DNA from: a bacterium
Lineage (GTDB): Bacteria > Bacillota_I > Bacilli_A > RF39 > UBA660
Assembly: GCA_963641945.1 (NCBI GenBank)
Contig: CAVIDW010000002.1
Location: 9,784 to 73,783 of the forward strand
Direction of reading: 5' to 3'
DNA: 64,000 bases
Shown here: piece after piece, positions 1 to 62,852 of the stretch
Numbering within the stretch: the first letter of the stretch is position 1
How the letters are laid out: each line of letters opens with the position of its first letter
Made by a program: the position numbers and the translations under genes
The notes under the pieces: generated by a model
Seen by the model: only the letters and a program-made list of their open reading frames with translations
Told to the model about the DNA's origin: nothing
The model's database searches: none

Positions 1-1540
1 CTAAACGTTTTTGATTATCTGTTTTTCCATCATAATCTGGAATTTCTTCTCCAGTTGGATCACCATTCTCATCAGTATTTCTTCCATATAGTCCTTCTTG
101 AACATGATTACCTATAATAGAATTAATTGTTTCATTTTCAAGTATGCCTGTTAATCCTAGTATGCCTGTACCATTTAATAAGTTTACAGCAATACTATCT
201 CCATAATTTTCATAATATTCTAATACTTCACGTTCTGTTGGTATTCTTCCTTCTTTTTCACATTTTAAATAAAAATCAGTTGATTTATAAGTATCACTAT
301 TGATTGTTTCTATTTTTTCTAAAACTTTTTGAGTTGTTTGTTCAAAATAATCATTGATATTTTCATTTGATGTAAAATTTGCAAGGAAAGTATCAATTTC
401 ATCTTGAGTCATAGAATCTTTATCAAGATATTTTCCGTCTTTTACAGTTGAATTATATAATCTTAATGCCTTATCTAAATCGATTTCTCCATTTTCATCT
501 ATGATTTGATAAGCCATTTCTCTACTGAAAGCTTCGCCATAGTAGTCTTTACCGTACATTTCAATCAAACTTTCTCTTAAGCCTTCAAGTTTTGATTTGA
601 GTGTGCTTGTAAATCCGCCCTCTCCATTTTCACCATTGAAGAAATTGCTAATAGTTTTTCTGTATCCTTCATATGATGTTTCATTTTCAGATATTCTATC
701 ATATTCTGGAGACTCAAATTCATCAAATAAACTATCTAATCCACCATTTGAACCAAAAAATTTACATTCTGTTATTACATTTACATTTGATGCTAAAGAT
801 GAACCTCCTAAGCATGCTAAAGCATTTTCTAGAGCTGCAAATGATATATCTATTCCGCCGCTGCCGCCAGAATCCCCTCCACCAGAATCACCACCGTCAT
901 CATCTGATTTGCTTTTATCTTCATCTTTAGAATCATCTTCATCCATATCAGTATCAGTGGTAGTTTCATTTCCATTCATAAGAAGTTCTAAAAGTTCTTC
1001 AAGATTTTCATCATCTTTATGTTCTTCTGAAAATTCTTTTAATATTTCTTCTATTACTTCTTCATTTCCTTGTTTTTTTGTAAGTTTTTCGATTAATTCA
1101 CTAATATCTTCTTGAGCAATGCCTTCGTATTGAATATCATTATTAGTTTGTTCTTTCATTTTTGTCGAATTATTACTTTCATTTATTTCCAATGAATCAT
1201 TATATTTTTTATTTTCATATGCAGTGGTTGATGTTTGAACTGTTTTTTGATTGTTGTTTTTAGTAGTTACTGTTGAATCTGTTTTTTTTATTGATTCTGT
1301 ATTTTCTAATTTTTCTGTACTTTTATCAGATGAATTATTTTTAATACTTTTTATCACTTTTTTTGTTTCTTTTTCGTGTGATGCTACTCCTGCTGCTATT
1401 ACTCCAGCTCCCACAGCAGCAGCGCCAACGCCTGTTAAAATATCTTTTTGTTTTTTGTGTACATCAAAAACATGCCCACATCTTGGACATTTTTTGTCAT
1501 TTTTATTTATCATTAAACCGCAACTACTACATTCAATCAT
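1..1540 (-). CDS. zinc-ribbon single-pass membrane protein, >513 aa, 3' end outside window; T7SS-locus associated, function unknown
   Basis: Absent from the supplied ORF track (no stop inside the window). My reverse-complement translation from ATG (1540-1538) stays open for 513 codons to position 1. It reads MIECSSCGLMINKNDKKCPRCGHVF (CxxC-x10-CxxC), GVGAAAVGAGVIAAGVA (TM helix), a long N/K/E/D-rich linker with DDDGGDSGGGDSGGSGG, then a non-repetitive domain. The start overlaps the upstream stop (TAATG). Confidence 0.7.
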   Translation of the reverse strand, partial: MIECSSCGLMINKNDKKCPRCGHVFDVHKKQKDILTGVGAAAVGAGVIAAGVASHEKETKKVIKSIKNNSSDKSTEKLENTESIKKTDSTVTTKNNNQKTVQTSTTAYENKKYNDSLEINESNNSTKMKEQTNNDIQYEGIAQEDISELIEKLTKKQGNEEVIEEILKEFSEEHKDDENLEELLELLMNGNETTTDTDMDEDDSKDEDKSKSDDDGGDSGGGDSGGSGGIDISFAALENALACLGGSSLASNVNVITECKFFGSNGGLDSLFDEFESPEYDRISENETSYEGYRKTISNFFNGENGEGGFTSTLKSKLEGLRESLIEMYGKDYYGEAFSREMAYQIIDENGEIDLDKALRLYNSTVKDGKYLDKDSMTQDEIDTFLANFTSNENINDYFEQTTQKVLEKIETINSDTYKSTDFYLKCEKEGRIPTEREVLEYYENYGDSIAVNLLNGTGILGLTGILENETINSIIGNHVQEGLYGRNTDENGDPTGEEIPDYDGKTDNQKRL

Positions 1541-1980
1541 TATCTATTTCTCCAATATCCGCCAGTATTACCACCATATATCCCATTGCCATAAACATCA
1601 TCGGTTACAGGTGGGCGACATTCACTACATGATCCACAAGGTGTCATTGAAACTAGGCTTGCTTTGTCAGCTTCCAACCCAGATATTTCATCGCTAATAT
1701 CATTAAGTGCTAATTGAAAACTTTTTTGTTTGTTTTTAATATCTGTCATTATGTTGTTAAATTCAGTAGCGTATTTTGAACTTTCACCAAGATCATAAGG
1801 GCCATATGCACTAACTTCGGTACAATAATTTCCTATCAATTTTAAACTATTAGTTATGCAATTAAGTGATTCTAAACTATTATTACAGTCTTTTAATACT
1901 CCCTCGTACTTAGCTTTTTCTTCTTTTAAAGCTGCAAGTTGAGTATTAATTGCAGCTATTTTTTTATCATTCACACACAT
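1540..1980 (-). CDS. small helical Cys-rich protein, possible T7SS accessory factor or substrate
   Basis: Track ORF 1540..1989 starts at TTG. The ATG at 1980 has GAAGGGA 9 nt upstream. Heptad-like helices (IAAINTQLAALKEEKAKYE, ISDEISGLEADKASL) surround a YGPYDLG turn. The C-terminus has CGSCSEC and a Gly/Tyr tail. The shape recalls YwqH/DUF5082-type T7SS helper proteins, but I could not verify this. Confidence 0.6.
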   Translation of the reverse strand: MCVNDKKIAAINTQLAALKEEKAKYEGVLKDCNNSLESLNCITNSLKLIGNYCTEVSAYGPYDLGESSKYATEFNNIMTDIKNKQKSFQLALNDISDEISGLEADKASLVSMTPCGSCSECRPPVTDDVYGNGIYGGNTGGYWRNR

Positions 1981-1992
1981 GCTTATCAATCC

Positions 1993-2068
1993 CTTCTTAT
2001 TTCATAAATAGAATAACTATTAATTGTTCTACTTATGAAATAAGAAGTTATAAAATAACTTCTTATTT
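1993..2068 (-). promoter_or_regulatory. three-segment alternative-hairpin element between the WXG-like gene and the next gene
   Basis: The plus strand carries CTTCTTATTTCAT (1993-2005), ATGAAATAAGAAGTTAT (2035-2051) and ATAACTTCTTATTT (2055-2068). The middle segment is perfectly complementary to either flank (13 or 14 bp). The 3' copy on the transcript abuts the Shine-Dalgarno of the 1980 start. Confidence 0.55.
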
Positions 2069-2091
2069 GTTTAACAACCTTTTCTAAATGA

Positions 2092-2712
2092 TTAGAATGT
2101 ATAGTTTTGAATTGCGGTTGTTATACTTGCTGAAGCTGTTGCTAAAGTTTCTTTGTATACATTTGAATTACTGATGAATGTATCGAATGATTCTTGAGCA
2201 TTTTCTCTTCCAGTTCCTGCTGTCCAGTTTTCCATAATTGAGTTATAATATTTTTTAACTTCAGAAATGAAACTATCGATAGAACCGTTAGCAGCGTCAA
2301 TTTTAGCTTTTCCATTTGATGCTTCTGGAGTGATACCTACAGAATCTCTTGTATCTGTATAATCTTCCATAATAGTTTTATTTTCACAACTAATAGCACC
2401 AAAAGTTTCTAGTCCAGCACCATTAGAATTTTGGATTTCTCTATAATTTGCAGCAATCTTTGAAGATTCAGTAGCTAAAAGCGCTAAAGAATTTCTAATT
2501 CCAACCATTGCATTGTGAACTTTTACAATGTTTTCGATTTGAACTCCTGCATCTTTTCCTTCCCAACATCCTTTTAAAATTTGAATTCCGCTTGCTAAAT
2601 TAGCAATAATCGTATCAGCGCTGTAATCTCCACCACCAATAACAACATTGTTATATAATCCGTAAGCATCATCATGTAGTGCTTGTACACTATTAACCTT
2701 ATGATTCATATC
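2092..2712 (-). CDS. two-hairpin WXG100/LXG-like protein (206 aa), probable T7SS substrate
   Basis: The track ORF extends to 2757, but the promoter lies inside that extension. The ATG at 2712 follows AGGAGGT by 6 nt. The protein is all-helical with LKGCWEGKDAG in the first hairpin and ENWTAGTG in the second. It sits directly after essC. Confidence 0.65.
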   Translation of the reverse strand, partial: DMNHKVNSVQALHDDAYGLYNNVVIGGGDYSADTIIANLASGIQILKGCWEGKDAGVQIENIVKVHNAMVGIRNSLALLATESSKIAANYREIQNSNGAGLETFGAISCENKTIMEDYTDTRDSVGITPEASNGKAKIDAANGSIDSFISEVKKYYNSIMENWTAGTGRENAQESFDTFISNSNVYKETLATASASITTAIQNYTF

Positions 2713-2728
2713 ATTACCTCCTAGTATA

Positions 2729-2757
2729 ATTTTATAACATATTGAAAGTGTTTTCAA
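2729..2757 (-). promoter_or_regulatory. sigma-A type promoter of the WXG-like gene
   Basis: The minus strand reads TTGAAA (2757-2752), 17 nt spacer, TAAAAT (2734-2729). Confidence 0.6.
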
Positions 2758-2776
2758 GAAAATTTACACTTTTTTA

Positions 2777-2808
2777 TATAAAAAATCAAGTAGCTTTCTA
2801 CTTGATTT
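2777..2808 (-). terminator. rho-independent terminator after essC
   Basis: The minus strand reads AAATCAAGTAG-AAAG-CTACTTGATTT followed by a T run. The essC TAG stop lies inside the stem. Confidence 0.7.
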
Positions 2809-5800
2809 CATTTAATATTTTTATTAGTATTGGAACTCCATTTTTAATAACAATTGCATATTGATTATTAATATTTGATAGCATAGCTTGTTGTACTATT
2901 GTTTTTAATACAAATTGTTGTGATAATCCTTGTCCAATCCATATTCCATTATTAGTATCAAAATTATTCTTATACCAATCTTCATATTCATATTTCTTGA
3001 ATCCTGATGGAATATCAATTAAGATAAAGTTAACTTTTGGATATTCTTTATTATTAGCAAGTATCTCTTTAAATGCTTTTTTATGATTATCATCTAATTT
3101 ATCATAGAATTTACTAAATCCTATTACAACTACCCCTAAGTTAGAATATTTTTCAACACTCCTAAAGTTCATGTTATTATTTGTTAGAACATCTTGAATT
3201 CCTTTATTGAAGCTACTTATTATATCTACTGCTCTGTTAAAGTCACTATTACAATATTGTTTACTATAAGTATATTCTTCAAAGTAATTTTGTGCATCTA
3301 TCATGAATGTTTTAAATGCTGTATTTGAGTTTAATGTTCTAGTTATATTTTTAATAAATAAATTCATATTTCCAAATTCGTTAGAACAAATTATTGAAGC
3401 AACTCTCTTCTTAAAATCAAATAATGAAGCATTTAAAGACTCTTTAACAACTCCAATTGGAACTGTATCTAATCCAGTATATTTGTCCTTAAATTTGTCT
3501 AATTCTATTGTTTCTGGCATTACATGAATAGCAGGTGCTTTAGTATAATTTTTGCTTTCTAATTCTTTTACAAATTTATTAATGCTATCATATGAATTTT
3601 TATTTTCATCAATAAATGCTGTTTGGAATTCACAAACTCTTTCTAGTTTTGCAAGACCTCTACCTAAATTATTTGATGGTACTAAACCATTTGTTTTTCC
3701 TAGTATATCTTTATATGACATTTCATTTGTTAATTGTAAGCAAATGCTGTTTTTACAACTTTGAACTACTTTCATTTTTACACTGCTTTGTGTTTCAGTT
3801 GTTATGATGAAGTAAATTCCATATTTATTACCATCTCTAATAATTGGATAAAATTTATCTATAATATCATTATATAATTCATTTAAAATCTCAATTGAGT
3901 TAATTTCTACTACTATATTAGGTAATTTTTTAGGATTATTCTTGATGTAATTTTCATAATTACCACCAAAGCTAGTAAATAATTTTTTACGTTTATTTAA
4001 TTCAAATGATAATAGTTTAGCTAAATTATTGATTTTTTCATCATCACCATTAATTACAACATCTCCTACTTGAGGAGCATTTCTAAAGTTGTTTAATGTT
4101 TCTGCTCCAAAATCTAATATATATAAGTTTAATTCATCTGTACTATAATTTTTTAACATAGAGTATGTTAATGTTTGTAAGAATTCATCTTTTCCACTAT
4201 CATTCATTCCATATATTAGTGTATTACCATTATTTTTTAGATTGATTGTTAATAATCCTTGTTGTTGAGATGATGGATTATCATATTCACCAATTATTGG
4301 ATTAATAACATAGTCTTCTTTAACGTAATTGTATTTTTTAGATAATGATTCTACATATACTTCATTAGGTACTCTATCTAACCATAATTGATTAATTTTT
4401 AATGGAGTTTCTTCACCAATATGTATTAAGTATTTAACTATATTAGTTAATTCTTCTCCTTCTGAATGTAATAGTCTTTTTGAAATTACATTATTTATTG
4501 TTTTACTTACTGAACCAGTATTATCTATTAAATATAAGTTTTTATCAACTGATTTCTTAAATTCATTGTTAGGATAATATTGAGCTCCAGCCCACGCTGC
4601 TTGTCCTATTGCAAAGTATTCACTATAACCTACTAATAAATAAAATCTACCAACTTGTTTTATTTCAGCAGCTAAATCATTTCTGATCATTTCCATACTA
4701 TCTTGCTTATCTTGAACTTTTAAACAAACTTTGAATTTTGAGTTTGACCAAATTTGTCCATCTACTACTCCTGATGGTTTTTGTGTAGCAAGAATTAAGT
4801 GTACTCCTAAAGAACGTCCGATACGAGCTGTACTAACTAAGTCTTCCATAAAGTCTGGTTGTTGATCTTTTAATTCAGCAAACTCATCACAAACTATAAT
4901 TAAGTGAGGCATTGGTTCTTTTATTACACCATCTCTATATAGTCTTTGATATTTATAAATATCGATTGTTCCTTCACCAGTTTTTAATCTTACATCATTA
5001 AATACTTGTTGTCTACGAGTAAGTTCGCTATTAATACTAGCTAGTGCTCTATTAATTTCAGTTTTATCTAAGTTAGTAATTGTTCCAACTACGTGTGGTA
5101 ATTTTTTACCAGTTTCTGAATTTACGAATGCTCCTGCTAATTCTCCACCTTTGTAGTCGATTAATAAAAATGCAACTTCTTCCGGACTATAGTTAACTGC
5201 CATAGAAAGAACATATGAAATAATAAATTCAGATTTACCACTACCAGTCATACCAGCAATTAAACCATGTGGTCCATGTTGTTTTTCATGTAAATCTAAT
5301 ACAAATGGATCTCCTACTGTATTAACACCTATTTCTGTTTTTAATGATCTTGTAGGATTATTATCTTTCCATCTATTCAGTACATTTAATTGTTCTATAT
5401 TACCTACTCCAAATAATTCTAAGAATGTTACTGAATCAGGTAATTTTTTACTTGTTTCTTCTAAATTAATAGGAAGATTTGATAACATTTTTGTACAAGC
5501 AAACATATCATATGAATCATTTATTTCTTCTATAAATTTTGTTTGATTATTATTTTCTGTATTCAATATTGTTGAAGTTTTTTCTCCAATTATAATGAAT
5601 TTAGATACTTCACTTGGAACTTTAGAAAGTTTTTCTTCTAGTATAATCATACTAAAACCTAAATTACTATTTTTAACTTCTAATATATCACTTATAATTT
5701 CTATTTTTCTTGATGCATCTATATCATCAACGATTACTAAATAATATCCATTATTAAATTTACTAAAATTACTTATTCTTTCTTCTTCTGATCCATTTTT

Positions 5801-7375
5801 TGATAATACCTTTCTACTTTCAAATACTTGTACAAGATAATTAGATACTTCTTGCATTTCTTCTGTATTAGTAGCAAAGAATCTTATTGATTTATCATTT
5901 GAGAAACAATAAGGCATCTCTCTTAAGTATTCCCATCTATGTTTATTTACATCATTTGTGAATACTACTATTTTCAAGTCATCATAACTATGAAATGCCA
6001 TAACTTGTAATAACATATTATTTGTAAATGATATATATTTTGGATAAATACCATTAATACCAGTTAATGTATTTTGAATAAATGAGTATCCGATTGGAAC
6101 ATTATTTATTACTTTATTAAAATCTATTAGTTTGTTTAACATTAATTTAAGATTATCATTATCCATTGAGAAATCTTCACTATGATAGCTAATTTTAGTA
6201 TTAAAGTTAACATCTCCAGTACCTACTCTTACCGTTAAGAAATCATTTTGATCATTTCTTCTTGACCACAATGTTCTTCTTTTATTCATTATCATGTCGT
6301 AACAAACATCTGTTGAAATTAAATTTTCTTCTAATGTTCTTTTTTGATTTTCGTATTCTACTGCTAATTCTTTATCTTTTTTATTTATATAGTTTTGATA
6401 TAAAACTTGTCTTTCTTCTTCTTTCTTTTGTTTCTGTTTCTTTTCAAAGTTTTTAGTAACAAATGGCCAAACCAGCATAGTTAGTAACATAGATATACAA
6501 ATAACTAATGATGGAATTATACTTTTAAATGTTTTTTGCCCATCTACAACTGCCATAATTGAATTTGATAATGTCATCATTGAACTTGCTGCCATTGTTA
6601 ACATTGGGGCAAGTGTTACCCACAATGGTGTTTCTGGATCTTTTTCTTTTGCAGGTGGTGAATCTATAACCATCTCATAAGTATTAATTTCTTTTCTTAT
6701 ACGAGGTGATTTTAAGAAATAGTCTTCATCTTTATAAATATCTTCATTTTCTATTTCTTCATCTGTTAGAGTATCATCAACTACTAAATCTATTTGTTCT
6801 AAACCATTTATAGTTAAATTATTAAATGGATTATTTACAAATATATATTCACATACAACTAATATTTTAAATCCATATATATTAATTAAATCACAATAAT
6901 TACATGTAGTTGTTTTTTCAACTCTTCTATCATTTACATAGCAAACTAAATTTTCTCCTACTTCAAGAGTCCATTTTTTATCTTTATAAGTAAGTGTTAT
7001 ATGTTCATTTCCTACTATACTTATTGGTACACTTATGTTACATGCAGCTGATGAACCAAATTTTATAACTGAATTGTCTTTTACTATATAGTTTTTATAT
7101 GTATTGTCAGTTAAATAATCACAATATAATAAATACTTTTTATCATTTTTTTCTACATTATAATATTTTCTAGCTCTAAGAGAAATGTTTTCTGTGTTAC
7201 CATCTGTATCAGATATTTTTACATTTTTTCCTGGATTTATTATCCATTCATTATTAGAAACTGTAATATTAATCACATTTTTGTTATATGTATCTTTCAT
7301 CCAGAAGTTTCCAATTTTTTTAACTGGTAGAGCAAAAACTATAATTCTATCATCATCAAATAAATATACATTCAT
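2798..7375 (-). CDS. essC: type VII secretion FtsK/SpoIIIE-family ATPase EssC/YukB
   Basis: 1525 aa with an N-terminal FHA-like region and two TM helices (LWVTLAPMLTMAASSMMTL, IIPSLVICISMLLTMLVWPFV). It has three ATPase modules. Module 1 has Walker A GMTGSGKSE and Walker B IIVCDEFAE. Module 2 has a degenerate GMNDSGKDE. Module 3 has no evident P-loop. GGAGGA RBS upstream. Confidence 0.9.
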   Translation of the reverse strand: MNVYLFDDDRIIVFALPVKKIGNFWMKDTYNKNVINITVSNNEWIINPGKNVKISDTDGNTENISLRARKYYNVEKNDKKYLLYCDYLTDNTYKNYIVKDNSVIKFGSSAACNISVPISIVGNEHITLTYKDKKWTLEVGENLVCYVNDRRVEKTTTCNYCDLINIYGFKILVVCEYIFVNNPFNNLTINGLEQIDLVVDDTLTDEEIENEDIYKDEDYFLKSPRIRKEINTYEMVIDSPPAKEKDPETPLWVTLAPMLTMAASSMMTLSNSIMAVVDGQKTFKSIIPSLVICISMLLTMLVWPFVTKNFEKKQKQKKEEERQVLYQNYINKKDKELAVEYENQKRTLEENLISTDVCYDMIMNKRRTLWSRRNDQNDFLTVRVGTGDVNFNTKISYHSEDFSMDNDNLKLMLNKLIDFNKVINNVPIGYSFIQNTLTGINGIYPKYISFTNNMLLQVMAFHSYDDLKIVVFTNDVNKHRWEYLREMPYCFSNDKSIRFFATNTEEMQEVSNYLVQVFESRKVLSKNGSEEERISNFSKFNNGYYLVIVDDIDASRKIEIISDILEVKNSNLGFSMIILEEKLSKVPSEVSKFIIIGEKTSTILNTENNNQTKFIEEINDSYDMFACTKMLSNLPINLEETSKKLPDSVTFLELFGVGNIEQLNVLNRWKDNNPTRSLKTEIGVNTVGDPFVLDLHEKQHGPHGLIAGMTGSGKSEFIISYVLSMAVNYSPEEVAFLLIDYKGGELAGAFVNSETGKKLPHVVGTITNLDKTEINRALASINSELTRRQQVFNDVRLKTGEGTIDIYKYQRLYRDGVIKEPMPHLIIVCDEFAELKDQQPDFMEDLVSTARIGRSLGVHLILATQKPSGVVDGQIWSNSKFKVCLKVQDKQDSMEMIRNDLAAEIKQVGRFYLLVGYSEYFAIGQAAWAGAQYYPNNEFKKSVDKNLYLIDNTGSVSKTINNVISKRLLHSEGEELTNIVKYLIHIGEETPLKINQLWLDRVPNEVYVESLSKKYNYVKEDYVINPIIGEYDNPSSQQQGLLTINLKNNGNTLIYGMNDSGKDEFLQTLTYSMLKNYSTDELNLYILDFGAETLNNFRNAPQVGDVVINGDDEKINNLAKLLSFELNKRKKLFTSFGGNYENYIKNNPKKLPNIVVEINSIEILNELYNDIIDKFYPIIRDGNKYGIYFIITTETQSSVKMKVVQSCKNSICLQLTNEMSYKDILGKTNGLVPSNNLGRGLAKLERVCEFQTAFIDENKNSYDSINKFVKELESKNYTKAPAIHVMPETIELDKFKDKYTGLDTVPIGVVKESLNASLFDFKKRVASIICSNEFGNMNLFIKNITRTLNSNTAFKTFMIDAQNYFEEYTYSKQYCNSDFNRAVDIISSFNKGIQDVLTNNNMNFRSVEKYSNLGVVVIGFSKFYDKLDDNHKKAFKEILANNKEYPKVNFILIDIPSGFKKYEYEDWYKNNFDTNNGIWIGQGLSQQFVLKTIVQQAMLSNINNQYAIVIKNGVPILIKILNEIK

Positions 7376-7386
7376 TTTTATTCCTC

Positions 7387-7632
7387 CTAGATAAGTACTA
7401 ATTTTGTACTATTTTTAATGTTAGTTTCTCTTACTAAAGTATTATTTTTATAACATTCTCCAGTATCAGCATTCATTATTACTATGTTCTTAGTAAAGTC
7501 AATTGAATCAGTAACAATATTGCTTAATAGTTTAGTAATATTACCTATTTTTTCATTTATTGGAATAAAAATTTCACAGTTTTTGCTTAAAGATAATATG
7601 TATACATTAACTAAAATTTTATTTTCATACAT
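7387..7632 (-). CDS. yukD: YukD/EsaB-like ubiquitin-fold T7SS protein
   Basis: 81 aa, immediately 5' of essC, with its TAG stop inside the essC RBS. Size, the alternating beta-like pattern and the C-terminal TKLVLI fit the YukD/EsaB family. Confidence 0.6.
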   Translation of the reverse strand: MYENKILVNVYILSLSKNCEIFIPINEKIGNITKLLSNIVTDSIDFTKNIVIMNADTGECYKNNTLVRETNIKNSTKLVLI

Positions 7633-7746
7633 ATAAAAACACCCTCTTATCCTACTATAAAAAGTATACTATAAAACATGGTGAATTTAAAGTTTTTTAT
7701 TTAAAAAAAATTGTTTATTCAACAACTTTTTCAATAAATGATAATT

Positions 7747-7992
7747 TTATTTAAGTTTTGGACTTTTATATTCCCATTCAAGTTCTGCTAGTTCTTTTTT
7801 TTCTTCTTCTGTTAATTCTGGTATGTCTTCTCTTTTATACTCTGGCTTATAATTTACGTATCCGAAAACTTCACCTACTAATTTGCCATTTTTATCTAAT
7901 TCTCTAGCTATACACCTATAGGCATCTTCTACACTATCTACCATTTTGCCATCTTTGTCAAAATAATATACTTCACTTTTTTCTCCAATCAT
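7747..7992 (-). CDS. hypothetical small acidic protein (81 aa)
   Basis: Intact ORF with its own promoter downstream of the rpoC terminator. I recognised no motif. Confidence 0.5.
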   Translation of the reverse strand: MIGEKSEVYYFDKDGKMVDSVEDAYRCIARELDKNGKLVGEVFGYVNYKPEYKREDIPELTEEEKKELAELEWEYKSPKLK

Positions 7993-8017
7993 GTTATCTA
8001 CTTACTTATCTCTTTTG

Positions 8018-8046
8018 ATTATACCATTAGCAATTCAAAAAGTAAA
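8018..8046 (-). promoter_or_regulatory. promoter of the 81-aa gene
   Basis: The minus strand reads TTTACT (8046-8041), 17 nt spacer, TGgTATAAT (extended -10, hexamer at 8023-8018). Confidence 0.55.
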
Positions 8047-8072
8047 TTATTCTTATTTTATTATTAGATGAT

Positions 8073-8100
8073 AAAAAAAGAAAATGCATTAAGCATTTTC
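8073..8100 (-). terminator. rho-independent terminator of rpoBC
   Basis: The minus strand reads GAAAATGC-TTAAT-GCATTTTC followed by TTTTTTT. The rpoC TAA lies in the loop. Confidence 0.75.
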
Positions 8101-60338: not shown

Positions 60339-62852
60339 TTATTCAGCTCCTATCCATGTAATTCTTGCAGCTCCATCACCCATTTTTGCTGATTTTGCAT
60401 TAAGTGATTTTGATACAGAAGTTGTTTTGTTTGTTTTTGTATTAGTTGCTGATGATGTTGTGCAGTTATAACAATACATCACTTTATTTGTAAGATTGGT
60501 ATTTCCTATATAGCTTGAACCTCCTGCTCCATTTGTACTTGTGTATTCTCCAGTACCCTGGTATGCGTATCCACCATAATAGCCACCTCCAGCGCCTCCG
60601 CTTCCTTCAGCACCACAGTTATAATATCTATATGAGCGTCGTCCTGCTTGTCCTTGCCCGAAACTATAACCAGTTGTTTGGGTTGCGCCTATTGATTTAT
60701 TTCCTACTCCAGAAATGCCACCTGCATTAGGTCTTACTGTGTCACATTCGCCGCTTCCTTGGACTCCACCTCCACCTCCTGCAACAATAAGTATGTTACT
60801 TTTTTTATTATTTAGAGTTGATAATAGACCACTTGTTGTAGCAATATGTGTTGCTCCGCCTCCACCAGAACCACCAGCATATTTAAGATTTGAATCATCA
60901 TATGGATATGATGAACTAGAACCATATCCGCCAGAACCACCACCGTTATATCCACCTGCTCCTGGTGTTGTTATTGGAGGTAAACCTGCACCAGATGGAG
61001 AAGTTCTTCCGCCTGTTCCTCCTTTTCCACCAACATAAATGTAAAGTTTTGTTCCAGCAGTCAACTTTATTTGACCAGTTGCATAAGCACCATATCCGCC
61101 ATAGTTTAAGGGATTATAATACTCGTTTGGTAACGGATACGCCCATTGATATATATCTCCACCTTGTGCACCCCAAGTTTCAAGTTTATATATGCCTGTA
61201 ACTTTAACGTCATAAGTATAAGCTCCGCTCTTAGTAAATGATTTTGGTAAATCTGTTGGGGCATTTACTTCCCATCTTGCATACAATGTTTGAGTACTTG
61301 TTATCGTTACTTTTGTTGTGTTATATACTCTTGTTCCACCTGTATTAGATGTGTACCAACCGGTGAATACATACCCTGATCTGGTTGTAGTTGGTAATGT
61401 TCCATATGTACTATTATATGTAACTGTTTGATTTGCTGGTTGTGTTCCACCATTTGCATTGAATTTTATAGTATATTTATTTGCTTTCCATTGAGCATAT
61501 AATGTTTGTGCACCTGTTATTTTTACTTTTGATGCACTTGTTACTTGTGTTCCATTTAATGCAGATGTATACCATCCTTTTAATGTATATCCAACTCTTG
61601 ATGTTGTTGCAAGAGTTCCATATGGACTATCATATGTAACTGGCTTTGATGTTGGATTTGGAGTTGTTCCTCCACTTTGATTAAATGTTATGGTATATGT
61701 ATTTGCTTTCCATTGAGCATATAATGTTTGATTGCTTGTTATTGTTACCTTTGTTGTACTTGTAACTTGTGTTCCTCCAGAGTCTGCTGTATACCAACCT
61801 GTGAATGTATAACCAGTTCTTGTGGCTGTTATTCTTGATAAGTCTCCATATTCACTACCATAACTAACATCCTTTGTTGCAGTTGATCCCATTGTTCCAC
61901 CATTACCAACGAATGTTATTGTGTATAAATTTGGATTCCAATGTGCATATAATGTTTGATTGTTTGTTATCGTAACATCAGTAGTAGATGTTACTTTACT
62001 TCCACCATTTTTTTCTGTATACCATCCATCAAATGAATAACCTGTTCTTGTTGGTTCAGGCATACTACCATATTTTTCTTTATAAGTTACTTCTTGAGTA
62101 TAATTTGTAGGTGTTCCGCCATTAGAGTCTAAAGTGACAATATACTTTTTAGGTTCAAAATTTATTACACAATTTAAATCTCTATCTAATGACCTAATTG
62201 TTATTTTATTTCCTTCGACTAAGAAATAATTAGAAAAACAATTAGAAATATTTGATGATGAAATGTCATATCCTGGCGATGCAATAAAGTTAATTGATTT
62301 AGTTGTTCCTTTATCTATATACATTTCTTGTGGGCCTAAATTACTGCCAGATCCCAAATTACCATAACTTTCATTATTGCTTTTTAATCTTATCATGTAA
62401 GATTCAACAAAATACCATGGATTATTTATAGTTCCTTGTCCATTAACTTTTGCAAATGGCTGAATATATTCTGTAATTCTTACTGCAAGTCTATCATTCA
62501 TATGTTTTGAATATAGTGCATCAGATACGAAATAATAATTGTCTGTTCCATTCTTTGATGATGTCCAATATCCAATACCTGGAGCTAACCATGAACCCTT
62601 ATTATCTAAAGAAAGTTTGTATTCATATGAACTGATAAATCCTCCATTTTTAAAACTTCCTTGTGCTATATAACCATTTTTTTCATAATTGTAATATTTA
62701 TTCCCAACAACATTTATGTATCTTTTATAATTAGAAAAGTTTACAATATAATTGTCTGTTATCTTCATTCCATCATTATAAGTACTTGTGGCATTAATAA
62801 AAAATGGTATAAATGTTAATAAAAGTAAAACATATTTAATTGCTCTTTTCAT
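60339..62852 (-). CDS. secreted surface protein: N-terminal domain + 4 Flg_new (Listeria-Bacteroides) repeats + C-terminal glycine-rich (ALK/LTK-GRD-like) domain
   Basis: Signal peptide present. Four repeats of about 74 aa (GYxFxGWYT....G..V....V.I...QTLYAxW). The C-terminus reads YTYDVKVTGIYKLETWGAQGG...YIYVGGKGG...GGYNGGGSGG...GGSGGGGATHI...IVAGGGGG. Confidence 0.75.
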   Translation of the reverse strand: MKRAIKYVLLLLTFIPFFINATSTYNDGMKITDNYIVNFSNYKRYINVVGNKYYNYEKNGYIAQGSFKNGGFISSYEYKLSLDNKGSWLAPGIGYWTSSKNGTDNYYFVSDALYSKHMNDRLAVRITEYIQPFAKVNGQGTINNPWYFVESYMIRLKSNNESYGNLGSGSNLGPQEMYIDKGTTKSINFIASPGYDISSSNISNCFSNYFLVEGNKITIRSLDRDLNCVINFEPKKYIVTLDSNGGTPTNYTQEVTYKEKYGSMPEPTRTGYSFDGWYTEKNGGSKVTSTTDVTITNNQTLYAHWNPNLYTITFVGNGGTMGSTATKDVSYGSEYGDLSRITATRTGYTFTGWYTADSGGTQVTSTTKVTITSNQTLYAQWKANTYTITFNQSGGTTPNPTSKPVTYDSPYGTLATTSRVGYTLKGWYTSALNGTQVTSASKVKITGAQTLYAQWKANKYTIKFNANGGTQPANQTVTYNSTYGTLPTTTRSGYVFTGWYTSNTGGTRVYNTTKVTITSTQTLYARWEVNAPTDLPKSFTKSGAYTYDVKVTGIYKLETWGAQGGDIYQWAYPLPNEYYNPLNYGGYGAYATGQIKLTAGTKLYIYVGGKGGTGGRTSPSGAGLPPITTPGAGGYNGGGSGGYGSSSSYPYDDSNLKYAGGSGGGGATHIATTSGLLSTLNNKKSNILIVAGGGGGVQGSGECDTVRPNAGGISGVGNKSIGATQTTGYSFGQGQAGRRSYRYYNCGAEGSGGAGGGYYGGYAYQGTGEYTSTNGAGGSSYIGNTNLTNKVMYCYNCTTSSATNTKTNKTTSVSKSLNAKSAKMGDGAARITWIGAE
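61272..62147. repeat. in-frame tandem repeats (periods about 216-228 nt) encoding the Flg_new modules
   Basis: The 30-nt string ATTTGCTTTCCATTGAGCATATAATGTTTG occurs identically near 61480 and 61702. Related copies lie near 61266 and 61931. Confidence 0.85.

Follow-up and report, generated by a model that had tools for sequence, protein, structure and literature searches.

At the left end of a 64,000-nucleotide stretch of contig CAVIDW010000002.1 (GCA_963641945.1), hereafter the window, an uncultured bacterium of the RF39 lineage carries a compact gene cluster of the kind that encodes a type VII secretion system (T7SS). Read right to left on the minus strand, rpoBC are followed by a gene for a YukD-like protein, essC, a gene for a fused tandem WXG100 protein (the double WXG protein), a gene for a helical protein of 146 amino acids (aa), named p146, and an open reading frame (ORF) for a zinc-ribbon protein that runs off the window edge (Table 1). 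All of the genes named in a preliminary description of this DNA are present on that strand, at the positions it reported or a few bases off. The locus is best explained, and we think probably so, as a reduced T7SS comprised of the A, B and C components only, combined with its own giant effector cassette, in an uncultured low-GC gut bacterium.

Table 1. Genes and signals of the T7SS-type locus and its upstream flank, in window coordinates (from rpoB to the window edge).
Feature	Position	Strand	Remarks
rpoB	15455..11793	-	
rpoC	11793..8089	-	stop at 8089
Terminator-like hairpin and T-run after rpoC	8076..8104	-	12-pair stem; bounds the locus upstream
Orphan gene between rpoC and the module	7747..7992	-	81 aa; no family match
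YukD/EsaB-like gene (TsxB equivalent)	7387..7632	-	81 aa; ubiquitin fold
essC (EssC/TsxC membrane ATPase)	2798..7375	-	1525 aa
Hairpin overlapping the essC stop, then T-run	2783..2808	-	possible terminator or attenuator
Sigma-70-like promoter match, TTGAAA-17-TAAAAT	2729..2757	-	ahead of the double-WXG gene
Double-WXG gene (fused tandem WXG100; EsxA/TsxA equivalent)	2092..2709	-	205 aa
p146	1540..1980	-	146 aa; Cys-rich helical hairpin
Zinc-ribbon ORF, first 513 aa of the giant	1..1540	-	starts at 1540; runs off the window edge

EssC scores 971 bits against the T7SSb-type NCBIfam equivalog TIGR03928 (cut-off 778) and matches the FtsK_SpoIIIE family (PF01580; 1e-45). Its architecture comprises an FHA region (FHA match at residues 105-166), a transmembrane segment, a DUF domain and three ATPase domains, D1 to D3. 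It aligns with residues 209-927 of Bacillus subtilis YukB (E=4e-112); this alignment begins at EssC residue 202, and the first 201 residues, including the FHA region, fall outside it. By eye, the Arg and Ser of the phosphothreonine pocket are missing from the FHA segment (FGSS..., GNEH). As first described, a single ATPase module of the 1525-aa protein bears canonical Walker motifs: D1 carries GMTGSGKSE and IIVCDEFAE, both invariant in the clade, D2 carries GMNDSGKDE, in which Ser/Thr is replaced by Asp, and IVVEINS in place of the Asp-Glu of Walker B, and D3 is devoid of a P-loop. This pattern is conserved clade-wide. The degenerate D2 form (GxxxSGKDE, with no Walker B Asp-Glu) is kept in 10 clade members, and the conservation of the degenerate motif itself points to selection on D2; the T7SSf-like relative in locus L014 retains GASGGGKT at this site. 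In Staphylococcus aureus, EssC bears canonical Walker motifs in D1 and D2 only, and D3 is degenerate in all species studied (PMC9436818). Of the two domains initially taken as non-canonical, D2 is indeed unusual, whereas the degeneracy of D3 is ordinary for T7SSb. The S. aureus D2 Walker motifs are required to hold EssC, EsaA, EssA and EssB together, and FHA2 recruits EssB and EssA (PMC9436818); in clade members without these partners, D2 is of the degenerate form.

The 81-aa product of the gene preceding essC gave no direct match to Pfam, including YukD (PF08817), or to NCBIfam, and its family profile retrieved neither YukD (2BPS) nor any other meaningful match among PDB sequences. Its 39 database homologues are all unannotated, and PF08817 is matched by two of 15 family members from related loci (E=1.8e-5). 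An AlphaFold2 model built from 28 sequences, with a predicted local distance difference test score (pLDDT) of 80, displays a beta-beta-alpha-beta-beta-beta beta-grasp fold, for which Foldseek returned ubiquitin, SUMO and NEDD8 at TM-scores of 0.72-0.80 (E about 1e-4). The protein ends in ...KLVLI with no Gly-Gly, as EsaB/YukD proteins likewise do (PMC11217815), and its gene adjoins that of EssC in 15 of 15 loci. The fold, the PF08817 matches of its relatives and this constant neighbour bear out its assignment as YukD/EsaB-like, and the cluster thereby contains the ubiquitin-like component without a C-terminal Gly-Gly that belongs to the T7SS core. The structure of the B. subtilis system has a central channel modelled as a YukB hexamer and an outer crown formed by YukC, and the FHA and DUF domains of YukB clasp YukD (PMC12637312); given this arrangement, it is mechanistically conceivable that EssC and the ubiquitin-like protein could form a channel by themselves.

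EssC and YukD-like genes also occur in duplicate, as seen in L004 (L004:1187-13894), where two such pairs lie about 9 kb apart on a contig of a metagenome-assembled genome (MAG). The two EssC proteins are 38% and 70% identical to that of the window, and the first pair is followed by a gene for a phospholipase C of the zinc-dependent type (PF00882) that may be a T7 substrate.

The third recognizable component had been described as a 206-aa WXG/LXG-like protein. Its WXG character is well founded and extends to two domains, but its length is 205 aa and the LXG label was wrong. PF06013 matches it in two stretches (34.5 bits against a gathering score of 27.3), with TIGR03930 covering residues 32-96 and PF06013 covering residues 135-203. 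Conservation is strong among orthologues from nine genomes: the first half has an invariant W-x-G-[KR]-D-A-G and the second an invariant N-W-x-x-G, and the tail TA[IL]xNY is conserved as well. A comparison of the two halves by hhalign detected no similarity (E=0.26), and therefore the protein has the look of a heterodimer in one chain, comparable to EsxA-EsxB or TsxA1/A2. The WXG100 protein expected of a T7SS core is thus represented in the cluster, in the atypical form of a 205-aa fused tandem.

Degeneration of two of the three ATPase domains, in genomes reduced to about 1.5 Mb and with a fragmented essC region in one of them (L016), could be the mark of a decaying, inactive T7SS remnant kept by chance. 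This seems to us very improbable. More than 12 genomes, the most distant at 54% identity, have an intact essC ORF of 1514-1540 aa in which the D1 Walker motifs are invariant; the double WXG protein is highly conserved, and so is the degenerate D2 motif. As for L016 (CP091739.1; positions 10001-14624 of a 1.53-Mb MAG chromosome), essC and its neighbours alike are split into many short ORFs; the breakage affects the whole region, looks like an assembly error and is probably due to frameshifts of a long-read assembly rather than to pseudogenisation.

The cluster is not peculiar to one strain. A scan of GTDB species representatives returned 17 loci encoding relatives of the window EssC, situated in uncultured Bacilli-type MAGs or in genomes like that of 'Clostridium sp. 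CAG:524', one of them a 1.53-Mb chromosome. About 12 genomes conserve the five-gene module. The order YukD-like gene, essC, double-WXG gene, gene of about 140 aa and giant gene is whole in L002, L003, L005, L007, L008, L009, L011 and L020, and L024 displays the same order with one extra small gene before the giant. L021 and L074, which like L020 and L024 are metagenome contigs, also keep the module, each ending inside essC with the YukD-like gene out of view, while in L004 and L012 the contig or fetched stretch stops at essC and what lies downstream is not visible. The upstream flank is rpoBC in the window and NUDIX-VanZ-SpoU-rpoZ in L003, L004, L007, L008 and L024. Since the flanks differ, the five genes form a conserved unit, as the neighbourhood comparison proposed at the outset now makes plain. 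At about 40% EssC identity, L010, L013 and L017 have EssC followed by a YukD-like gene, with WXG100 genes in addition in L010, and L014 carries a DUF6382-FHA TsxJ-like gene by which it resembles T7SSf, e or j.

What this unit lacks are the membrane partners of a T7SSb. EssB/YukC (PF10140-type), EssA and EsaA/YueB were each unmatched in the five locus proteins, in the genes left of the window and in window positions 17-55 kb, where precomputed Pfam matches are to housekeeping and envelope genes only; a size and transmembrane survey of the remaining window ORFs found nothing EssB- or EsaA-like. Left of the window, which can be read in a near-identical contig, lie only the rest of the giant, a gene for an 87-aa protein (p87), a hydrolase gene, ffh and unrelated genes; the discovery there of essA, essB and esaA, named in the preliminary description as what would make this an ordinary T7SSb locus, does not occur. 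Three further strains show the same site, with only unrelated genes beyond ffh. Among related loci, the three families are absent from the flanks that were scanned or had precomputed Pfam matches (the flanking genes of L011 and L012, and those upstream in L017, lay outside this coverage). Genes for these three are missing to the left of the window, within its 64 kb and next to essC in about 12 relatives, and the original claim of a compact T7SS-type cluster without the usual membrane components nearby is upheld by the locus scans and the related genomes alike.

An ordinary T7SSb split over the genome, with EssB, EssA and EsaA at another locus and the ATPase module and its substrates here, would leave the same picture, the more so as about 80 kb of a roughly 1.5-Mb genome has been seen. 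EssC passes a T7SSb-type equivalog and keeps its FHA region, the part that binds EssB in T7SSb (PMC9436818). This explanation is nevertheless unlikely. Related loci, at 31-98% EssC identity, show no EssB, EssA or EsaA within 10 kb in the flanks scanned or covered by precomputed Pfam matches; EssC residues 1-201, which include the FHA region, fall outside the YukB alignment; and D2, needed to hold EsaA, EssA and EssB, is without Walker motifs. Core T7SS genes, moreover, are usually clustered. Several known subtypes truly lack these genes, as the 2024 survey of such systems demonstrates (PMC11217815).

In that survey, Garrett, Higginson and Palmer defined T7SSc-j from RefSeq genomes, all of which have TsxA, TsxB and TsxC along with subtype-specific accessories; neither a zinc-ribbon protein, nor a fused WXG100, nor a MAG host is mentioned there (PMC11217815). 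The locus shares with T7SSb an EssC with an N-terminal FHA region, a transmembrane stalk, a DUF domain and three FtsK-like domains that passes TIGR03928, a discrete ubiquitin-like EsaB/YukD, a WXG100 component and toxin cassettes beside the machine. It differs in that EssB/YukC, EssA and EsaA/YueB are missing from the locus and its surroundings, in the D2 Walker A/B, degenerate here but canonical and required in S. aureus, in the fused tandem WXG100 in place of a homodimer of chains of about 100 aa, and in the N-terminal 201 EssC residues that YukB does not align with; canonical Walker A/B motifs in both D1 and D2, expected of a T7SSb, are found in D1 alone. With T7SSc-j it shares the TsxA/TsxB/TsxC core and the absence of the T7SSb membrane proteins, and the two non-identical WXG100 proteins of T7SSg and T7SSe are functionally comparable to its fused pair. 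In contrast to those subtypes, the kinase TsxD, the vWA protein TscE, the PPM phosphatase TsxF, the EspG-like TsxG, TsxH, the Ig-rich TsxI with its Sec signal, the DUF6382-FHA protein TsxJ, TsxK, the DUF5050 propeller TsgL and the (TadZ) AAA+ protein TsfV were not found. The locus proteins matched none of the Pfam families of T7SSc-j accessories in a scan that leaves fold-level relatives, such as EspG-like ones, outside its reach; detection of DUF6382 and FHA in the distant relative L014 shows that the method is able to find accessories. TsgC of T7SSg is without an FHA domain, unlike EssC of the window, and the survey hosts come from RefSeq whereas those described here are uncultured MAGs. All three components of the generic T7SS core, namely an EccC/EssC-type ATPase, a WXG100 protein and an EsaB/YukD-like protein, are present. 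The locus would thus appear to fit the generic core and none of the ten subtypes a, b and c-j (PMC11217815), a placement made by gene content and not by EssC phylogeny.

The gene closing the module encodes by far its largest product. The zinc-ribbon membrane protein of more than 513 aa noted previously is cut by the window edge, and its full length was obtained from CAVJRE010000029.1 (GCA_963651815.1), a contig located by the exact EssC sequence that has 23 mismatches in 17,375 bases of overlap with the window (99.87% identical) and represents a near-identical strain. The protein, referred to here as the giant, comprises 2435 aa in that strain and is followed by the gene for p87, that for a 260-aa alpha/beta hydrolase, and ffh. 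Its N-terminus presents a CxxC...CxxC zinc ribbon, a transmembrane segment at residues 34-52, an acidic low-complexity linker and the start of a conserved body. Pfam and NCBIfam scans of the giant found nothing beyond the zinc ribbon, neither the giant nor its C-terminal domain gave a meaningful match to PDB sequences, and no LXG domain (PF04740) was matched in P0003, P0008, P0053, P0055, P0058, P0059, P0060, P0063 or P0066. The novelty first attributed to the Cys-rich and zinc-ribbon proteins accordingly stands, since neither matched a described T7SS family in the Pfam and NCBIfam scans.

The preliminary description had offered the downstream proteins both as candidate effectors and as substitutes for the missing membrane partners. 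A giant that serves as a structural membrane component while doubling as an effector carrier, its zinc ribbon and transmembrane segment replacing EssB, EsaA or TsxI, its body forming an envelope conduit and a toxin forming the tip, would be in keeping with the conservation of zinc ribbon, transmembrane segment and acidic or Ser/Thr/Asn-rich linker in L002, L003, L005, L007, L008, L009 and L011 and with the constant position of the gene as last of the module. Large envelope-spanning proteins are also known elsewhere, TsxI in T7SSd, e and j and EsaA in T7SSb (PMC11217815). We regard this arrangement as quite improbable. The giants P0053 (L024) and P0054 (L074) occupy the same operon position in the same module of EssC, YukD-like and double WXG proteins, yet are devoid of both zinc ribbon and transmembrane segment, which speaks against the anchor as an obligatory subunit of the machine. 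No other membrane protein is encoded in the module of these two loci, the product of the extra 142-aa gene of L024 being soluble, and the substitution of membrane partners by downstream proteins is only weakly founded. The giant matches neither EsaA (TIGR03929) nor the Pip family and bears one strong transmembrane segment rather than the 1+5 of EsaA/YueB. Its body diverges far faster than EssC (39% against 91% identity to the window in L005), and relatives of it occur in multi-copy arrays away from EssC. Such rapid divergence and such arrays are typical of cargo, not of machinery, and make the giant cargo-like. An effector or substrate cassette is thus favoured over a membrane-component role, for which the case is weak, and the zinc ribbon and transmembrane segment are more likely a lineage-specific tether on the cargo, perhaps for surface display in contact-dependent delivery.

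Variation among the giants follows the pattern of polymorphic toxins. A word-indexed search recovered only 10 relatives. They are alike over residues 1 to about 1940, at roughly 80% or roughly 40% identity, after which they part completely into tails with one or two HExxH modules (HELGHNID...EDFAES), duplicated HD-CE/HD domains (PF24391/PF01966) or the C-terminus of the window type. In L002, EssC is 98% identical to that of the window, compared with 80% for the giant, which has another tail. The giants are mosaics produced by recombination: P0005 and P0001 are about 50% identical over the first 300 or so residues after the linker (about 225-520) and about 95% identical from 'QKQLEILTYSWYA' onward (beyond residue 520); window positions 1-870 cover part of the region compared. 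Near-identical strains, compared at this one chromosomal site, differ in what lies between the giant and ffh, and the difference goes with the type of tail. The window-type tail is accompanied by p87 and the hydrolase (window strain, P0002), the HD-type tail by a 134-aa gene (P0003) and the metalloprotease-type end by a gene for a 197-aa protein of metallo-beta-lactamase fold (P0004). The strongest test of this association comes from a distant giant. P0054, a 3368-aa giant of a divergent lineage whose body matches that of the window only at residues 990-1276 (34% identity), bears the C-terminal domain of the window (37% identity, E=1e-61) and has homologues of p87 (39%, 8e-12) and of the hydrolase (48%, 9e-92) encoded downstream. 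Since all three recur together there, the C-terminal domain, p87 and the hydrolase move as one cassette, and such co-movement is a signature of polymorphic toxin/immunity systems. A housekeeping role for the hydrolase was considered and rejected, as it co-varies with the toxin C-terminus. For p87, neither a Pfam or NCBIfam match nor a transmembrane segment was found, and the lack of the latter fits protection against an intracellular activity. With a variable C-terminus, a co-varying downstream gene and a small helical partner encoded upstream, the giant behaves like a polymorphic toxin, that is, a strain-variable cargo whose toxicity would be a matter of its C-terminal modules. By eye, the window-type C-terminal domain displays a transglutaminase-like C/H/D pattern (GIICINWAQLYSELLLSAGF ... 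HAGIYVKLKDGSIIMPD).

The small partner upstream is p146, for which seven Cys residues and a helical hairpin confirm the initial description of a Cys-rich helical protein. Its stop codon and the ATG of the giant overlap by one base (TAATG). The family conserves Cys residues and the turn motif G-x-x-[YFL]-D-x-G-E. Scans of Pfam and NCBIfam returned no family, Lap and WXG100 models included, and PDB sequences yielded generic coiled coils only. A profile of nine members matches the small gene directly upstream of related large proteins in L024 (1e-8), in three cassettes of L023 (4e-8 to 1e-6) and in L022 (3.5e-3), and these p146-like genes run into the start of the toxin gene, as p146 does. Its sole other match below 1e-3 is a 102-aa gene of the T7SSf-like L014 (1e-4), which lies upstream of a 408-aa protein with no family match. 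LXG toxins have targeting factors, the Lap proteins, that share the small size, helicity and upstream gene position of p146, and whose FxxxD motif is akin to YxxxD/E (PMC10801868); the [YF]-D-x-G-E of the p146 turn is a [YF]xxxE. p146 is accordingly a candidate Lap-like targeting factor for the giant, a possible likeness in mode of action and not one of family membership.

Cassettes of this kind also occur apart from any visible EssC. In L023 (L023:2280-17393) three follow one another, each with a p146-like gene of about 110 aa overlapping the start of a gene for a protein of 1194-1603 aa, and each large gene is then followed by a small gene (61-227 aa), so that the region resembles a toxin/immunity island. 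A rearranged version is found in L006 (L006:6473-18546; 'Clostridium sp. CAG:524'), in the order double WXG, p146-like, DUF4176, 612-aa, YukD-like, EssC and 1325-aa genes; DUF4176 is a chaperone family of T7SSb toxins (PMC12478183). The two large paralogues of L006 have no zinc ribbon or transmembrane segment and a helical, LXG-looking N-terminus. An N-terminal 'GG..GG-I-x-I-S-F' domain common to them and the giant was considered on visual resemblance and dropped, the similarity not being significant by BLAST.

The window cassette resembles LXG/Lap modules in its small helical partner gene, directly upstream and translationally coupled, in the conserved N-terminal body with polymorphic C-terminal toxin domains and co-varying immunity-like genes, and in the occurrence of arrays. 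Its central domain may serve translocation, as has been suggested for the 'middle domain' of intracellularly acting LXG toxins (PMC12478183). It differs in that neither LXG (PF04740) nor Lap (DUF3130/DUF3958) models match, in that the giants are 5-10 times larger (2435-4420 aa) with several enzymatic modules in series, and in the zinc ribbon and transmembrane anchor with which the giant of the window lineage begins.

This central domain was delineated by an exhaustive HMMER search with residues 1041-1544 of the giant, which returned 475 representative clusters at E<=1e-3. What they have in common is a hydrophobic, Gly-rich domain about 200 aa long (giant residues 1126-1335, approximately; L001:19211-19840, beyond the window) for which there is no Pfam model and which is found in proteins of 400-5300 aa. 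The stretch of the window's giant that P0054 matches (residues 990-1276 of the former) lies in and just before it. No families were found by Pfam in seven proteins with this domain, nor in small genes upstream of such proteins. The domain occurs in T7-type contexts in L024 and L074 and, within toxin cassettes that have p146-like partners, in L022 and L023, and also in phages. P0068 (3445 aa; L025:6265-16602), a protein in a phage context with faint-to-weak precomputed matches to LPD23 and ART-PolyVal, is flanked by a PG_binding_1 protein and a BppU_N baseplate protein, and a capsid gene lies a few genes upstream of it. An alignment-based scan found the domain encoded in 46 viral contigs of IMG/VR (L026-L071), many of them 40-44 kb; a single-sequence scan of IMG/VR found no relative, and tblastn against 50,697 GenBank phage records did not find the domain at that sensitivity. 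Polyvalent proteins have been proposed to enter the host by injection with DNA (PMC5512222). The giant resembles the polyvalent proteins of Iyer et al. (2017; PMC5512222) in being a giant multi-domain protein of unrelated enzymatic domains strung together and in the hydrophobic Gly-rich domain, the only domain common to both. It differs in its chromosomal location within a T7SS operon flanked by rpoBC and ffh, with phage genes absent, and in its Lap-like partner and immunity-like cassette. The hydrophobic domain may help the C-terminal modules across the target membrane.

Taken together, these features suggest how a reduced A-B-C system with a cargo of its own might work. Its recognizable machine would consist of EssC as the channel-forming ATPase, the YukD/EsaB-like protein as a clamp on EssC, and the double WXG protein as a secreted single chain. 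Its cargo cassette would consist of the translationally coupled p146, the giant with its body of about 1940 aa and interchangeable enzymatic C-termini, and the immunity-like p87 with the hydrolase. An EssC hexamer stabilized by the ubiquitin-like protein would form the translocon without EssB, EssA and EsaA, with the double WXG protein in the role of EsxA. p146 would bind the helical region that follows the linker of the giant and present an export motif of the [YF]xxxE type to EssC, the hydrophobic Gly-rich domain would aid passage of the C-terminal toxin domains across the target membrane, and the zinc ribbon and transmembrane segment may tether the toxin to the surface of the producer for contact-dependent delivery.

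Several observations weigh against this proposal. The locus scans covered about 80 kb, and EssB, EssA and EsaA could be encoded in the remainder of the genome. An N-terminal transmembrane anchor on a T7SS substrate is without precedent in the T7SS literature cited here. Neither LXG (PF04740) nor another known T7 targeting domain was detected in the 2435 residues of the giant, and an AlphaFold2 model of its residues 222-640, from a three-sequence alignment, reached a pLDDT of 44 with no readable fold. The likeness of p146 to Lap proteins is limited to size, helicity, gene position and turn motif, with no family model matching, and the transglutaminase-like pattern was seen by eye, with no Pfam, hidden Markov model or PDB match for that domain. 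A bolder form of the proposal, which we advance tentatively and consider doubtful, is that EssC and its ubiquitin-like clamp constitute a complete translocon without other membrane subunits, co-evolved with a new class of membrane-anchored mega-toxins of 2.4-4.4 thousand residues that use a membrane-penetration domain, shared with phage polyvalent proteins, to bring exchangeable enzymatic modules into neighbouring cells, and amount to an eleventh T7SS subtype restricted to gut Bacilli that are uncultured and have reduced genomes.

The boundaries and signals of the locus add detail to this picture. The terminator and new promoter placed after essC in the preliminary description are partly borne out: a hairpin with a T-run and a consensus site are both found there, but the scan reported the hairpin (2783-2808) on the plus strand only, its minus-strand role with the T-run being a reading by eye, and the promoter is a consensus match of a kind whose total count equals the shuffle expectation. 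Rfam families gave zero matches in window positions 1-9000. The 81-aa orphan gene between rpoC and the YukD-like gene, without a family match in Pfam or NCBIfam, was found solely in L002 and L005, the closest relatives, where it is 72-81% identical compared with 96-99.6% for rpoC, and its position is held by rpoZ in other genomes. It was rejected as a member of the system on account of this confinement and replacement, and is probably no part of it. Elsewhere in the window, a 1171-aa secreted protein with a signal peptide and a Big_3 domain (20457-23972, minus strand) and an 837-aa secreted protein with a signal peptide (60339-62852, minus strand) are probably surface proteins unrelated to the T7 locus. 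Beyond ffh, sister strains carry a conserved trio encoding a VWA-domain protein (314 or 524 aa), a 199-aa and a 371-aa protein (L019:15365-18020; L020:19884-23169; L021:13422-16707); T7SSc includes a vWA component, TscE (PMC11217815).

If EssC and the YukD-like protein suffice, this would be the smallest natural T7SS and a tractable one for learning the requirements of the channel, which the partial B. subtilis structure has left unsettled (PMC12637312). The loss of the D2 Walker motifs alongside that of EsaA, EssA and EssB would be a natural experiment in support of the proposed assembly role of D2, and the fused double WXG100 would provide a single-chain analogue of the EsxA-EsxB pair. The giants, the Lap-like partner family and the hydrophobic domain are without Pfam coverage and would extend the repertoire of T7SS cargo, and a hydrophobic domain shared with phages would link bacterial toxin delivery to phage protein ejection. 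As the hosts are abundant uncultured Bacilli of the human and animal gut, the giants may be relevant weapons of gut competition.

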